A stretch of 64,000 bases of DNA, from the NCBI GenBank assembly GCA_051313645.2, contig JBNRSN020000005.1, positions 303,366,001 to 303,430,000 of the forward strand. The letters are read 5' to 3'. The translations under genes and the position numbers were made by a program. This document shows positions 6,415 to 60,339 of the stretch, in pieces. Positions within the stretch are counted from its first letter, which is position 1. Each line of letters begins with the position of its first letter. Source of the DNA: Centroscyllium fabricii (lineage: Eukaryota). The notes under the pieces are model-generated. The model searched no databases. It was given only the letters and a program-made list of their open reading frames with translations, and had not been told where the DNA came from.

Positions 6415-7445
6415 AACATAGGTACAGGAGTAGGCCATTCAGCCCCTCGAGCCTGTTCCGCCATTCAATGAGATCATGGCTGATCTACGATCTAACTCCA
6501 TATACGCGACTTTGGCCCATGTCCCTTAATACGTTTAAGAACATAAGAACATAAGAAATAGGAGCAGGAGTAGGCCAATCAGCCCCTCGAGCCTGCTCCG
6601 CCATTCAACAAGATCATGGCTGATCTGATCCTAACCTCAATTTTATTTTTGCTCTCCATCCCGCCCAAACCCATGTGATCACCCAGGAGGGGCGAAAAAC
6701 CAGATAAAAAACCCAGTGGCCAATTTGGGAGAAAAAATCTGGGAAATTCCTCTCCGACCCATCTAGGTGATCGAAAACTGGTCCAGATCACATGGCCGAT
6801 CTGAACCTAGCCTCACGTCCACTTACCTGCCCGCTCACCATAACCCCTAATTCCCTTTACTTCCAGGAAACTGTCTAGCTCGGTTTTAAATTTATTCAAT
6901 GTAGTAGCTTCCACAGCTCTCTGGGGCAGCAAATTCCACAGCCCCACTGTGATGAACCATTTGGTGTGGTTCACACTGTGCTATTATTGTATATAGTTTG
7001 TGTTAATATATCTGTACCTTTCTGGATTATTGTATATAGTTTGTGTTAATAAATCTGTACCTTTCTGTAAGGACCTGGACCGGCTGACCCCGCCACTGGG
7101 TATGAGTATAAAGGAGAATGCTCCGCCCACCTGACTCTCATTCCGGGCGGACTCATCGCAGACTAGGTTCAGTTCTTTGTAAATAAAAGCCTTTCGTTAG
7201 AACAAGCTGTCGGCTCTGATTTGAGGCTCCTCACCCACCACCCTCTGAGTGAAGAAGTTTCTCATCTCAGTTTGGTTAACAAAGAGCTATCAATCTCGGA
7301 TTTAAAATTAACAATTGATCTAGCATCAACTGCTGTTTGCGAGGAAGAGAGTTCCAAACTTCCACCACCCTGTGTGTGTAGAAGTGTTTCCTAATTTCAC
7401 TCCTGAAAGGTCTGGCTCTAATTATTAGACTATGCCCCCGACCTA
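6415..7445 (-). mobile_element. Nested CR1 3' tails (one inside another, the inner one hit by a solo LTR)
   Basis: Two ggagtaggcca(t/a)tcagcccctcgagcctg tail motifs; the outer copy breaks at about 6535 and resumes at about 7272. Confidence 0.75.
6948..7233 (+). mobile_element. Solo LTR (TG...CA, 286 bp), 5-bp TSD CCCAC
   Basis: TGTGATG...CCTCA flanked by cccac/cccac; contains TATAAA and AATAAA; homologous copies at 22544 and 60054. Confidence 0.85.
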
Positions 7446-12750: not shown

Positions 12751-13109
12751 ATTTGTTGCTCAGGCGCCATTTTCACAGAACTACCACGAATCAATTCCAA
12801 ATCGCTATTTTTTAAAGCTTTTTATGAATCTGTCTCTCGTTCTCTGAATCCCAGCTTCACCAACACTCTAGAGCTGGCAGGAGAGTGTGTTGCAGCCCAG
12901 AGAGATCGTGGGAATCCACAGGCGAGGAGGAAATGGAATATGACCGAGCTCTGGGCTGTACCAAGAGTATTTCTGCTTAAAAGGAGTACTTCAAGGAAGG
13001 CTGACAAAAACCATAATCGAGAGTTTTATTCCAGTAACTTCAAGTTCCTTACATCAACGTTGTTCAAAATAAATTGCTCATTCACTGCAAGTGTGGCTAC
13101 AGCAACATT

Positions 13110-13882
13110 GGCCCCAAAATTAGGGTGACCGCGGGAGGTTTTGGAGCCAGGTACTCACGCACACGGGCTCCGAATTGCAGGGAGCAGCTGTTTCCCGCTG
13201 CTACCTGTAATTCCGATGATGGCCAGTGGGGGATCGCGAGCTGCAGCAAGCTGTATCGCGTTCGCCTGCGCACCAGGAGGTGCGCAGTGGAATTCCAATT
13301 GTTTTCAGAGTTTTTTTTATCGGGGTAAGTATTGAAGATTTTACGCTGAAAAATATCAGCCGTAACGACCCTTTTTATCAGGTAAGTGTTTTATTTTAAA
13401 GAATGTAATTTTTTTTTTTTTTATTTTTTTTTTAAACAGGTTTTTACTTTTTTTAAACTTTAAAGACAGGTAAGTATTTTTTTAGGCCAGTTAAAAGCTT
13501 TAAAAAAAATCTAAATTTTTATTTTTTCTTTAAAATAGGTAATTTATGTTAGAGTATTGTTAAAAAATGGTGTTTTTTAATTTAATTTTTGTGTTTAGAT
13601 GTGTTTTTGAAGCTCTTCCTTTTCATAACTTACACAGATTTCTCCGTGTAAGTTATGAATGGAGGATTGCTTCCATTGATTGGCTCCCTGCAGATCACGT
13701 GGTCCCGTGCGAGATCTCCCACTAACTAAGATGTTGAGTTGCACCAGCAGGGCGCCTGGAGCTTGCAGCAGCTGTACAACTCGGGATTTCACATCCTAGA
13801 ATTGCAGAACGGCAGGAGCGCAGGGTAAGTGTACCTTGGAGGCATACACTCGCAGGAAGGCTCCGAGGCTAATATTTGGGCC
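13110..13882. mobile_element. Harbinger-like MITE, family A (GGCCC..AAATT TIR)
   Basis: ggccccaaaatt ... aatatttgggcc; GC-rich arms with an AT-rich core; related to 26272, 28590 and 56755. Confidence 0.7.
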
Positions 13883-14277
13883 AATGTTTTAGCCACATAC
13901 ACTAATTTTTGTAGGAAATGCCTTACATACACTCACAAAAGAGGTAGATGTGCATATTTACTTAAACTGTTACAGTTCAGGAATCAGGGAAGTAAAGCAC
14001 TTTCACAATAATCAAAACAACAATTCACATACTGCTTTTTGCCTTACTATTTTACCAACAAATTCACAAAAAGGTTGAAGTACACTTGCCTATGCCATGC
14101 GAATGCGTATTGAGGTCATATGCCTATTGCTCAATTTTGATTTATTAATCAGAAATGCAATTATCCACATCTGGATTCCCAATTATCCATATTTGCCGAG
14201 TGGCTAACATACTGGATAACACTGCCTTACACAAAGGTTGATGTTAAAACTTGCCTCTAATCAGCAGCAGCAGTCCA

Positions 14278-14420
14278 GGTGTCAGCCACGGCTCAGTGGG
14301 CAGCACTCTTGCCTCTGTGTTAGAAGTTTGCGAGTTCAAGTCCTGCTCCAGGCACTTGAGCACAAAATGTAGGCTGACACTCCAGTGCAGCACTGAGGGA
14401 GCAGTGCACTGTCAGAGAAG
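14278..14420 (+). mobile_element. tRNA-derived head of a Deu-type SINE
   Basis: ggctcagtggg (A-box-like) ... gagttcaagtcc (B-box) followed by gctgacactccagtgcag. Confidence 0.65.
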
Positions 14421-14624
14421 CAGAGCTCAATTTTCCCTCGGGTGCGGGGAATTGGCGGGTTCCCGGCATGTCAGGTTTCCCACACAAATCCAAATGGGTC
14501 TGGGAGATCAATGCAATTTTGGCTCAATTGGCCAATTGATTTCCAGCATGTGGGAACCTTGGCAATTGACTGTTTCTAGTCAGAAAGTCGGCGGGACCGG
14601 GATGGTGCTGGTTGATTAAACATG

Positions 14625-14853
14625 AGAGCCCCGTTCCACAGACAAGTGCTGCAGAGCCCCGTTCCACAGACAAGTGCTGCAGAGCCCCGTTCCACAGACA
14701 AGTGCTGCAGAGCCCCGTTCCACAGACAAGTGCTGCAGAGCCCCGTTCCACAGACAAGTGCTGCAGAGCCCCGTTCCACAGACAAGTGCTGCAGAGCCCC
14801 GTTCCACAGACAAGTGCTGCAGAGCCCCGTTCCACAGACAAGTGCTGCAGAGC
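14625..14853 (+). repeat. 28-bp minisatellite, 8 perfect copies
   Basis: (AGAGCCCCGTTCCACAGACAAGTGCTGC)x8 + AGAGC, with no spacers. Confidence 0.97.
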
Positions 14854-15071
14854 TATCTCTCAAACATAAAAAAGAGCTACAAGCTTGAGTTTATAAAAAG
14901 TAATATCCTCACTGATATTGTACACCCTGGGGATACAGTTGGCCCCCATTACTTGTTCTATGTTGAATGAAGCAGTTATTGATCAGTCAGCTGCTGTCAA
15001 ATAATCAGAATCATTCACAATACATCTGGTCTGGATGCTGCTTCACTGAAAGACCCTCATCTAGTGATGGA

Positions 15072-15378
15072 TCATTCTGCAGCATTCGAACCAGTATTTT
15101 TGCCATCACATGCTACAATTTTCACTTTGTCCACTTTCACCAGTTCAGTGACCTCTCGGAATTACACATCATTCAGGACAAATGTCCAAACGTTAGGTAT
15201 TCAAGGAGCCGCTGAAGTTGACCCAGTTGCGGACTCTCTGAGCTAAGGCGTTGTTGATTGCTTTGTCAAATTTTAGCAGGAGCTGCAGGGCCAGCTGAGG
15301 GGTGATCTACTGAGACTGTCTCAGCTTGTCCAAGCTCTCCTGCAGGCTGTTGCCCAGGGTCGAGTTCCGGTACAGCAG
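15072..15378 (-). pseudogene. GTF2A2: Processed pseudogene of general transcription factor IIA subunit 2 (TFIIA-gamma)
   Basis: Minus strand translates [98 protein letters not shown], matching TFIIA-gamma over almost its whole length. Intronless, with two in-frame stops (about 15308 and 15163) and a frameshifting deletion of YRFCD (about 15195). Missed by the ORF track. Confidence 0.95.
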
Positions 15379-15774
15379 GTTAAATCTCATCCTTTGACTT
15401 GCAGCTGATAGTCAGCAAGCCGATTGTGTTCACACCAGGTTTCACCGGTGGGGTTTCCCCACAGGTGGGTTTTGGGTGTGAAAGCGCTTAAAATAGCAAG
15501 GGTCCCTTAAAATGGCATTATAGATGCCAATAATTGCCGATTCAGGTCCCTAAAGACCAGTTCCGCCTGCGGCAGGCGGAACTGATTCGGGTCGATCAGA
15601 CACACCGGCTGGAACTTACAAAGTGTCGGGTTTCAGGCGGGGGGTGGGGGGGGGGGGGGCTCGCGACCCTCACATTTTGCAACTTTCACCCCCACACGCC
15701 TGAAAGCCCGCCTGACGGCCCGAGGAAAATTGACCCCACAATCTTTTGGAGGAAACGTTAAACCGAGGGCCCGT

Positions 15775-18300
15775 CTGCCCTCTCTGGTGGGCGTAAACCC
15801 ATATCCCCAAAACATATTCATGGCCACCCCTCGGCCTTGCCATCTCTCATGGCCTTGCTCCTCCCAGCATGTCAAATGCAGATAAGGCCATCTCTGACCA
15901 CTTCCTCGTATCACTCACCTCCCACTTCCTCCTTCCCCCACCGAACCGTACTTCCTTCTGTGTCCGCCCTTGAAAAAAACTCTCTTACAACTGCATTTAC
16001 GAAATCCCAACTGTCCAGCCTTTGGCCCTGCAGTTCACCATGACCTTTCTGCAGCTACCGATCTGCTCAACCACACCCTCACCACCACTTGTGATGCCCT
16101 AGTCTGTTCACACAATTACTCGCTCTCACCCTGGCCGGTCCCCCGGTACAGTCCTCGTCTTCCCTCCCTTAATTCCAAGGGACGCAGACTTGAACAGACA
16201 TGATGGACAACTGATTTAGCCATTCAGTTGGACCACATGAAGCATTATCGGGTCCTGCTCGTCTGCCAAAATTGCTCACCATTCTAGAATCATTCTGGAA
16301 TGCAAAGATAAACTCCGGCTTCTATTCTCTACTGCTGACTGTCTGCTTAAACCCCTCTCCCTTGTCTCCACCACCCCCACCTCTGAAAACAAGTGTGAGG
16401 AGCTCATGGACTTCTTTGTCTCTAAGATTGAGACCATCTGTTCACCTGCCTCAGTCACTTCCCTTCCTTCCCCATACTCACTGGGTCAAACTTCCTCTAA
16501 GATTTCTCTCTGCCCTAGTCCTGAACTTACATCTTTTTTCAGTTACTCTCCAATCTCCCCTCATGACCTCTCCACACTCATCTTATCCACGAGACCCACT
16601 TCCTGCTCCCTCAGCCCTATTCCCATCAAACTGCTGTCACCCAACTTCCTTTTCTGGCCCTCATGTTTGCTGACATTGTTAATGGTTCTCTCTCCTCAGG
16701 TATTGCTCCCCCTCCCTCAAATCTGCCATCATCACCCTCTCCTCAAGAGAGCAACCCTTGACCCCTCCGTCCTTGCAAACTACCGCCCCATCTCCAACCT
16801 CCCTTTCCTCTCCAAAGTCCTTGAACATGTTGTCGCCTCCCAAATCCGTGCCCATCTTTCCCGCAACTCCATGTTTGAATCCCTCCAATCAGGTTTCTGC
16901 CCCGCCACAGTACCGAAACGGCTCACATCAAAGTCACAAATGACATGAGACCATCATGAGGGGTGATCTGATAGAGGTGTACAAGATTATGACGGTTTTG
17001 ATTAGGCTAGACGGGGAAAGGCTGTTCCCACTAGTTGATGGTACAAGGACTGTGACAAAGGTAAACTATCCCTCCTCATCCTTCTTGACTTGTCTGCAGC
17101 CTTTGACATGGTTGACCACTCCATCCTTCTCCAACGCCTCGCCACCGTCGTCTAGCTGGGTGGGACTGCACTCGCCTGATTCCATTCTTATCCATCTAAT
17201 CGTAGCCAAAGAATCACCCGCAATGGCTTCTCTTCTCGCTCCCGTATTGTTACCTCTGGTGTCCCCAAGAATCTATCCTTGGCCCCTCCTATTTCTCATC
17301 TACATGTTGCCCCTTGGTGACATCATCTGAAAACACAGCATCAGTTACCACATGTACGCTGACAACACCCAGCTCTACCTCACCCTCTCGCGACCCCTTC
17401 ATGGTCTGTAAATTGATAAACTGCTTGTCCGACATCCAGTTCTGGTTGAACAGAAATTTTCTCCAATTAAATATTGGGAAGATCGAAGCCATTGTTTTCA
17501 GACCCCGCCACAAACTCTGTCCCCTTGCCACTGAATCCATCCCTCTCCCTAACATCTGACTGAGGCTGAACCACACGGTTCGCAACTTTGGTGTCATATT
17601 TGACTGTGGAATGAGCTTCCGACCACATATCCGTGGCATAACTAAGACTGCCTATTTCCACCTCCGTAACATCGCCCGTCTCTGCCCTGCCTCAGCTCAA
17701 TCCCTGCTGAAACCCTCATCCATGCCTTTGTTACCTCTAGACTTGACTATTCCAACACACTCCTGGCTGGCCTCCCAAATTCTACCCTACGTAAACTTGA
17801 GGTCATCCAAAACTCTGCTGCCCGTGTCCTAACTCGCACCAAGACCCATTGACCCATCACCCCTGTGCTCGCTGACCTACATTGGCGCCCGGTTACGCAA
17901 CACCTCGATTTCAAAATTCTCATGTGTGTTTACAAATCCCTTCCTGGCCTCACCCCTCCCTACCTCTGTAAGCTCATCCAGCCCCACAACCCCCAAAATA
18001 TCTGCGCTCCTCTAATTCTGCCCTCCTGAGCATCCCTGATTATAATCAACATTGGTGGCCGTGCCTTCTGTTGCCTGGGCCCGAAGATCTGGAATTCCCT
18101 GCCTAAACCTCTCCGCCTCTCTTTCCTCCTTTAGTGTGCTCCTTAAAACCTACCTCTTTGATTAAGCTTTTGATCATTTGCAATAATTTCTCCTTGTGAC
18201 TCAGTGTAAAAAAAATGTTGTCTTATAATACTCCTGTGAAGCGCCTTGGGACGTTTTACTATGTTAAAGGCGCTATATAAATACAAGTAGTAGTTGTTGT
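15775..18300 (+). mobile_element. L2-clade LINE, decayed (endonuclease end, RT, 3' tail)
   Basis: NYRPISNLPFLSKVLEHVV (16406..16948), YADNTQLY, NFLQLNIGK; tail aaggcgctatataaatacaagt(agt/tgt)n. Confidence 0.9.
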
Positions 18301-49039: not shown

Positions 49040-49865
49040 CCTGGGGGGGTGGGGGTTCATGTCCCCGTGAGGCGGGGTTTTGGGCGGCCCAGCCGGCAAA
49101 ATAGCAGAACCGGCAGGTCCCGCCCCTCCCCGCCGCTTTCTCATTTTCCCGCCCAGATTCCCCACCCCGAAACCTTCCCGCCGCCGACTGGCGGGGATGG
49201 GTTGTCACCTCGTTAAGGGCCCTTAATTGGCATCATTAATGACATTTTAAGGGCCCTCAGCCATTTTGCCCTGTTTCCCACCCTAACCTCGCCACCCTAA
49301 ACCCCGCTGGGTGAAACCCAGCGGGAGCACAGCGCTGGGCATTACTGTTGGACTATAACCTGGTGTTGTGTGACTTCTTGCATTTATTACTTTCTCCTTC
49401 AAGGTGTGAAGGACATGCTGCTAAATGCTTGGCATGCCTCCAGCACCTTAGAGGAGTAAGTAACTCCGTTCTGGCTGCAGCAGCAGCTCTGAGCAGAAAC
49501 TGAGCAATCTTAGCTTTGAACGTGTCCTCACAGCCACTGCGAGCTGTGAGGGATTCTGAGCTCGCCCGCCCACCTGTCAGTCACCAGCACTTGGCCTTTC
49601 CCATTGGCTCCACTCCACTGTGATGTCACAGTGGAGTGTTTCCATGGGGACTGACAACAACCAGTGCTGGAACTGTCAATCAAACTGCTCGCAGCCCCGC
49701 TGCAGCCGACTCGATTGACCTAATTACCTCCCGCTGCCGCCGACGGGGATTTAACAACCTAATTAAACTAAAATTGCATGGCCTTCCCAGCTGTTTGGGC
49801 GGGTGGGACCGGAGGCGGCCCAGACCAATCCCCGCCAGGTTCCCGCCCTTCCGGCAAAGTCCCCC
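49040..49865. mobile_element. Decayed GC-rich MITE related to 14423-15737
   Basis: The revcomp of 49210-49330 matches 15435-15540; contains a 40-bp piece of the fold-back element (49344-49385). Confidence 0.55.
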
Positions 49866-60053: not shown

Positions 60054-60339
60054 TGTGATGAACCATTTGGTGTGGTTCACACTGTGCTATTATTGTATAT
60101 AGTTTGTGTTAATATATCTGTACCTTTCTGGATTATTGTATATAGTTTGTGTTAATAAATCTGTACCTTTCTGTAAGGACCTGGACCGGCTGACCCCGCC
60201 TCTGGGTATGAGTATAAAGGAGAATGCTCCGCCCACCTGACTCTCATTCCGGGCGGACTCATCGCAGACTAGGTTCAGTTCTTTGTAAATAAAAGCCTTT
60301 CGTTAGAACAAGCTGTCGGCTCTGATTTGAGGCTCTTCA
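60054..60339 (+). mobile_element. Solo LTR (near-identical to 6948-7233)
   Basis: TGTGATGAACC...GAGGCTCTTCA. Confidence 0.85.

Follow-up and report, generated by a model that had tools for sequence, protein, structure and literature searches.

A PIF/Harbinger element with a spliced GTF2A2 passenger and its likely MITE descendants in Centroscyllium fabricii

How a spliced host sequence came to lie between the terminal inverted repeats (TIRs) of a DNA transposon is the question raised by a locus of Centroscyllium fabricii. The window, meaning the whole stretch of DNA analyzed here, spans 64,000 nucleotides (assembly GCA_051313645.2, contig JBNRSN020000005.1, positions 303,366,001 to 303,430,000 of the forward strand). 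The initial annotation left two readings, a MITE that captured and moved a GTF2A2 cDNA or a retrocopy that landed in a resident MITE. The best explanation, held here with considerable confidence, is a Harbinger element that carries a spliced, end-trimmed GTF2A2 passenger in hundreds of copies, that likely gave rise to MITEs by deletion, and whose master lineage would have changed faster through error-prone gap repair.

Boundaries of the window copy and its Harbinger carrier

The element was first placed at 14423–15737 as a matched TIR pair around a GTF2A2 cDNA, and both the coordinates and the pair hold: the similarity of 30 cargo-retrieved loci to the window breaks off consistently at ~14425 and 15737 (Table 1). 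The TIR arms (14423–14442 and 15719–15737) align over 16 bp with one gap; the pair was missed by a repeat search and is weak evidence taken alone. The perfect minisatellite reported inside the element is equally real, with 28 bp × 8.2 at 100% (14625–14853) and 1–42 units in other copies. The near-identical flanks, gca and aca, are a 3-bp target site duplication (TSD) mutated once, in agreement with a paralogous, uninterrupted flanking repeat that fits the window flanks once exactly 3 bp are removed. Elsewhere in the window, another inverted-repeat pair at 13100–13890 (13104–13123 with 13869–13888, 90%, internal hairpins) is probably a separate MITE, and an identical 43-bp two-unit tandem at 6983–7067 and 60089–60173, 53 kb apart, probably represents two copies of one repeat.

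Table 1. Features of the window copy and its insertion site (window coordinates)
Feature	Position	Strand	Basis or remark
Host repeat, 5′ part (SINE-like, not classified), insertion target of the window copy	14279..14419	+	resumes at 15741-15797
Left 3-bp TSD copy (gca)	14420..14422		multi-copy edges, shuffling test, uninterrupted paralogue
Left TIR	14423..14442	+	homologous end in autonomous elements L334, L340
Left arm	14443..14624		outer ~175 bp homologous to the Myb/SANT-ORF end of autonomous Harbingers; inner part weakly
28-bp minisatellite	14625..14853		8.2 units in the window copy
GTF2A2 3′-UTR	14854..15071	-	stops 7 nt before native AATAAA; no poly(A)
Segment lost by a single internal deletion common to shorter families C-G	14945..15338		subfamily comparison
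Spliced GTF2A2 coding sequence, codon 3/4 to stop	15072..15380	-	exon joints ~15315, 15210, 15097
Harbinger-to-cDNA joint	15375..15380	-	parent arm and element agree through ATCAGC, then diverge; 3-6 bp mRNA microhomology inferred
Right arm	15381..15718	-	homologous to the region upstream of the Harbinger transposase ORF; source of the in-frame ATG at 15390
Right TIR	15719..15737	-	arm alignment, family edges
Right 3-bp TSD copy (aca)	15738..15740		multi-copy edges, shuffling test, uninterrupted paralogue

Perfect 3-bp TSDs flank 44 of 80 elements with both flanks, against a shuffled mean of 4.4 and maximum of 13; duplications of 2, 4 and 5 bp occur at chance. The target site of the element shows a palindromic, AT-rich preference. 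The genome holds 72,583 first-look candidates for the transposase domain DDE_Tnp_4, and 3 of 30 fetched transposase loci carry an arm like the right arm of the element at a fixed distance upstream of the transposase. When extended, these three loci display both arms, the transposase and a convergent Myb/SANT open reading frame (ORF). The parent domains match DDE_Tnp_4 (PF13359, E 9e-41) and Myb_DNA-bind_5 (PF13873, E 5e-10 and 4e-9; L222 and L224), while a stop-truncated piece from L334 has no Pfam match. Among 16 loci extended, L334 and L340 are complete 5.2-kb autonomous elements flanked by att/att and act/act. Short TIRs starting with GG are common to the element and its autonomous partner.

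The window copy at 14423–15737 is thus a copy of a non-autonomous PIF/Harbinger element, classed by its TSD, its TIRs and the domains of its partner. It is probably mobilized in trans by autonomous relatives, because its ends are shared with the autonomous partner. About 4.5 kb of Harbinger interior has been replaced by 530 bp of cargo plus the minisatellite. The proposal that a MITE captured and moved the cDNA is supported as to a Pack-TIR-like capture and needs refining as to the carrier, which is a Harbinger with its whole coding interior replaced and not a MITE with an insert.

The 3-bp TSD, the DDE transposase with a Myb/SANT ORF, and the short TIRs are shared with the PIF/Harbinger (PHIS) superfamily as excerpted in PMC9179366 and PMC4482050. 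In contrast to the strict TWA (or CWG) of named subgroups, which was not found, the TSD is loosely W-rich within a palindromic site, with A/T-rich, variable positions. The massive Harbinger amplification seen here also differs from the elephant shark, where none was detected according to an excerpt of PMC9179366. Many of the transposase candidates have open DDE domains, and the autonomous subfamilies are only 78–90% identical (L222–L224, L334, L340). The arms are mosaic, and those of subfamilies A and B resemble different autonomous subfamilies. Some 2.1–2.7 kb into autonomous elements L332–L344, a stretch resembles the 28-bp minisatellite unit with a 5-nt gap and is a possible source of the array.

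The spliced cargo and its entry

Besides coding sequence, the cargo includes ~220 bp of GTF2A2 3′-UTR, down to 14854. Both Pfam domains TFIIA_gamma_N and _C are recognized in a cargo copy with an open frame (L008), and among database entries those of shark GTF2A2 are the best match to the family protein. Native exons 4 and 5, located 616 bp apart on G000:C711 near 471.007 Mb, are fused in the cargo and show 98% and 96% identity to the A majority. The exon 3–4 joint of the cargo is without an intron, and an intron acceptor precedes native exon 4. Intron loss is shown from the native gene at two joints and supported by database isoforms at one; the cargo came through RNA, as a spliced GTF2A2 cDNA. 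The parental locus is free of element ends, the nearest relative arm lying >100 kb from the native exons.

Native exons 1–3 were not found in the assembly. Exon 2–3 pattern searches returned nothing, one chance match, or six matches that are all element copies, and the 200 kb around native exon 4 contains an assembly gap and no exon 2–3 match. This gap (G000:C711:471016192-471016391) lies 8.5 kb upstream of exon 4, and exons 1–3 of the essential GTF2A2 are seemingly absent from the assembly.

The native start had been described as replaced by ATG AGA TTT AAC from adjacent sequence. The new ATG is indeed Harbinger arm sequence, since the right arm is homologous to an autonomous Harbinger arm. 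The final codon does not generalize: the family majority across the new start reads ATG AGA TTT AAT CAG, and AAC CTG represents private changes of the window copy.

The pre-capture form of the joint motif has 3,737 occurrences at ≤1 mismatch, and of 30 loci bearing it, 29 cease to be homologous to A at ATCAGC. Homeology between parent arm and cargo past ATCAGC is not significant (p 0.03–0.27, 4 loci). For the 5′ microhomology and three founder lesions, the evidence comes from the cargo itself, from proteins in databases and from a contig, probably of mRNA, that belongs to another organism; the 3′ joint of the cargo is hidden by the minisatellite and is without a matched parent. At G000:C712:93.28-94.25 Mb, the joint motif recurs on one strand every ~41–47 kb or multiples thereof, suggesting a large tandem array.

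The cDNA would have entered when an excised or broken Harbinger was being repaired and synthesis switched, at a short microhomology, to a cDNA or retrocopy as template. RNA-derived patches at breaks and RNA-templated break repair are documented in an excerpt of PMC4516963. Evenly balanced with such a repair capture, or nearly so, is retrocopy insertion followed by deletion: a LINE-made GTF2A2 retrocopy would have landed in an autonomous Harbinger, an internal deletion would then have removed the poly(A), the TSD and the Harbinger genes, and later steps would be as in the best explanation. Taken by itself, this second route falls just short of an even chance. The genome does contain an independent processed pseudogene of GTF2A2, L190 (G000:C745:82666491-82666800), which is young, 5′-truncated and 100% identical to the gene over 321 bp; it has a poly(A) tail and its own TSD of 11–12 bp, so LINE-type retroposition of GTF2A2 mRNA occurs in this genome. 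L190 itself was rejected as the cargo donor because it is truncated in exon 4 and fully identical to today's gene. The abundant Harbingers, as counted by their transposase candidates, offer a large target, deletion derivatives of the parent exist (L338, L345), and short microhomology is frequent at the 5′ joints of retrocopies.

The 3′ side argues the other way, as a search for an intermediate, in which Harbinger arms would enclose AATAAA or poly(A), found none: of three matches at ≤2 mismatches to a 23-mer joining the end of the cargo to the native signal, one is the gene, one is L190 and one is due to chance. The cargo ends ~29 nt short of the poly(A) site used by L190. As the initial annotation had it, and as comparison with the native gene confirms, the cDNA carries neither an A tail at the poly(A) site nor a TSD of its own; these marks of LINE-type retroposition (a TPRT processed pseudogene) are absent from the cargo. 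The retrocopy route also needs two events, compared with one for repair capture.

Amplification of loaded copies and the shorter MITEs

The cargo query yields 980 first-look candidates, and all 40 that were scored cover the query at 92–100% (92–93% for the 39 outside the window). An exact cargo 18-mer occurs 308 times genome-wide, including the gene and a retrocopy, and its reversed control 0 times. Because the 18-mer is intact in only 47 of 67 top-scoring copies, loaded copies number at least about 440, and probably 450–650. Fifty cargo loci taken in position order comprise 27 of subfamily A, to which the window copy belongs, and 23 of subfamily B. The count of loci with both arms around GTF2A2, suggested at the outset as a BLAST-type check, came out as expected of a mobile unit: the right TIR is present in 45 of the 50, both ends fall within the fetched stretch in 31, and 21 of these 31 have a perfect 3-bp duplication. 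Distinct TSDs and dispersed sites demonstrate transposition after capture, and the picture expected of a simple retrocopy (one locus, poly(A), own TSD) was not observed.

Contigs of four coded organisms, one of them possibly the window's own species, cover the whole stretch; the arm-cargo joint is bridged by a contig in three runs, and the deletion joint described below is shown in three. L103 and L104 belong to a second, independent deletion subfamily without window 15018–15197, which is seen twice. In L038/L078, inverted parts belonging to two copies make up a rearranged double element.

Like animal Pack-TIRs, this element encloses host sequence within a single pair of TIR ends, moved after capture and has distinct TSDs (PMC8277862, in excerpt). 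PIF-Harbinger carriers are represented in the table of Tan et al. 2021 by 21 rows with 'PIF' (PMC8277862). The genomic-DNA template rule of these authors does not apply, as exons 4–5 are fused and the exon 3–4 joint lacks an intron; the element works like a multicopy Pack-TIR and fails the DNA-template rule. According to the excerpted text, that survey discarded intronless copies of multi-exon genes and contained only four multicopy cases (1.4%), an example having three copies (PMC8277862). Here, by contrast, a spliced cDNA has reached several hundred copies, and thousands of probable descendants bear its remnants. Reports of gene capture by animal cut-and-paste transposons concern mostly single-copy, DNA-templated cases, whereas this case is RNA-derived and amplified hundreds of times.

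Plant Pack-PIF elements likewise combine PIF-type TIRs with captured gene fragments and reach clusters of >100 members in maize; their cargo is described as chromosomal DNA, and 'cDNA' is absent from the excerpted text (PMC8903248). The same authors caution that diverged Pack elements may be misread as non-Pack (PMC8903248). The nearest precedent for cDNA cargo is the bat Helitrons, likewise DNA transposons that amplify cDNA copies, for which excerpts describe both retroposition into the element and TSD-less retrogene capture, with one family keeping only a UTR fragment (PMC4224331). Bat Helitrons are rolling-circle elements whose four retroposition cases amount to 118 copies with poly(A) and TSD, whereas here a cut-and-paste TIR element carries a cDNA trimmed at both ends in place of its coding interior (PMC4224331, in excerpt). 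Neither this family nor a shark TIR element that amplifies cDNA came up in literature searches, and the matches for GTF2A2 with a transposon were unrelated; the family may already have a repeat-library entry.

The right-TIR 16-mer has 4,512 occurrences. Among 87 position-ordered right-TIR loci, 66 are full-length elements of 700–1,300 bp (21 partial loci were left out of scoring). The cDNA ends score above all 40 shuffles in 64 of these 66 MITEs, and not in two autonomous elements. In the 64, ~43 bp of the 5′ coding end is joined to ~90 bp of the UTR end, and all remnant-bearing MITEs share one deletion, about 15338 to 14945. It is likely that this one internal deletion gave rise to thousands of shorter MITEs. 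Comparison with empty MITE copies had been suggested as a way to find the junctions; such MITEs probably descend from the loaded element and cannot serve as the pre-capture state. An empty MITE as ancestor was rejected because 64 of 66 keep both cDNA ends around the shared deletion.

GTF2A2 is conserved across vertebrates, so the remnant series must run from the gene outward. Identity of the native UTR piece to the subfamily majorities is 67/69 in A, 66 in B, 64 in C, 57 in D1, 52 in E1, 42/67 in F and 37/69 in G, a fall from 97% to 54% along the ladder. Family G has 3,993 first-look candidates of its own. MITE interiors of obscure source can thus be eroded host mRNA, as the outgroup shows. 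A distant relative of the right arm lies at window 49065–49331 and in the flank of L190; its interior may extend the ladder past G, although it scores no better than chance with the cDNA probe.

Rate of the master lineage and decay of the cargo

A conserved host gene supplies the outgroup that transposons normally lack, and makes it possible to measure directly how fast, and with what spectrum, an active DNA-transposon lineage accumulates substitutions. A tree built from 99 elements plus 3 autonomous arms has a long backbone, with short tips that are similar in every group. Non-CpG divergence from the own majority is 3.5% in A, 4.0–4.5% in B, 5.2% in C, 3.7–5.4% in D, 2.8–5.1% in E and 4.8% in F (94 of the 99 elements, with 5 outliers left out), and divergence is 3.9% in G (20 copies). 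The majorities, several of which rest on 4–9 copies, are up to 30% apart, and every subfamily lies 2.8–5.4% (non-CpG) from its own. Copies of F and G are 40–50% from the gene. Since A differs from the native gene at 11 of 369 sites, the capture is at most about 6.5% old on the resting-copy scale. Eight of the 11 founder differences fall within 75 bp (p 0.006), and assembly error was rejected as their cause, as the native states recur in L190 and in a contig of run X14. The rate excess is 6- to 7-fold from root to tip, or roughly 20-fold if confined to the interval before the bursts, and the master lineage appears to have changed roughly 6–20 times faster than resting copies.

Nested insertions follow the predicted order: one A copy is split within its UTR by a G copy, and one E copy by an element derived still further (L269). 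The order involving A rests on one case, in which the A host is 2.6% diverged and the G insert 3.8%, a difference within noise and not in the expected direction. A is closest to the gene and is not the oldest by copy divergence (3.5% vs 4–5% for C–F). D–F share some arm states with A, so that exchange as well as mutation enters into the arm distances.

Backbone changes in the cargo comprise 41 transitions and 69 transversions, with 48 AT>GC vs 23 GC>AT, and differ from resting-copy decay (57% transitions; 395:712) at p 6e-5 and 2e-7. On balance, we lean toward a reading in which one mRNA capture founded a MITE radiation of many thousands and the gene serves as an odometer: the active lineage would have accumulated ~45% change, transversion-rich and GC-gaining, against a few percent in resting copies, by transposition-coupled hypermutation. 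The master lineage would most likely change through repeated error-prone gap repair synthesis, and GC-biased conversion among copies or selection to escape silencing may add to this. Error-prone repair as the cause is suggested by analogy with excision-linked mutagenesis, in which repair synthesis of this kind is likewise tied to Harbinger and Mariner activity (PMC5023962, in excerpt). That effect was measured in rice host flanks, whereas here the excess change lies inside the element and a host-gene outgroup is the calibrator. Should the rate excess hold, ages of DNA-transposon families read off the divergence between subfamilies with a host clock would come out several-fold too high.

The main rival for the remnant ladder is horizontal round trips: the ladder would have been built in a faster-evolving host and its descendants returned repeatedly by horizontal transfer, with no hypermutation in place. 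The unusual backbone spectrum would fit the mutation pattern of another host, the autonomous relatives are very diverse (78–90% identical), and Harbinger transfer between fishes is on record in an excerpt of PMC9179366. We nevertheless consider this unlikely, as rungs A–G coexist with similar copy ages, which would demand numerous independent returns, the protein of the cargo is shark-like, and the same family occurs under four other organism labels, three of them with the same deletion joint.

Less probable still is an ancient capture after which C–G aged normally, while A and B were later refilled or corrected from GTF2A2 mRNA with the remnants as homology arms. RNA-templated break repair (PMC4516963, in excerpt) would supply the mechanism, and A has the lowest copy divergence among large subfamilies. 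Against such a refill, B is uniformly derived rather than mosaic, with 26 differences from A over 540 bp spread evenly across the middle and ends of the cargo, and A and B keep a nonsense codon and 9 further changes in common. Identity shows no sharp step at the deletion breakpoints of A or B, one A copy was the landing site of a G copy, and C–G copies exceed A copies in age by 1–2% at most.

The initial description of a nearly full-length, intronless coding sequence stands as to the missing introns and does not mention that the frame is broken: the window copy has a family-wide TAG at 15309–15307, a private 14-bp deletion near 15196 and further stops. Of 75 distinct copies, 59 have TAG and 1 has CAG at codon 28; among the remaining 15, indels put several out of register. 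The probable mRNA contig from another organism shows a sense codon 28 and native UTR states, so the lesions arose in the element before amplification. A and B share a single origin, marked by the common stop codon. Over 88 A copies, omega (dN/dS) is 1.05 and stop gains are at the neutral share; an open frame under purifying selection, as in a functional retrogene, was not found in the cargo, which is a dead passenger in neutral decay. That the cargo was kept for its use to the element, for example as a TFIIA-gamma peptide or a regulatory RNA, is highly implausible: an in-frame arm ATG precedes it in the orientation of the lost transposase gene and a few frames are open via a changed stop (L008, L028, L041, L043), but the codon 28 stop predates amplification, the omega and stop gains are neutral, and the most numerous descendants deleted the coding core.

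Three near-identical copies, L105–L107 (C1039 and C1044:21.19-21.38 Mb), all have CAG at codon 28 and probably represent a segmental duplication of one reverted copy.
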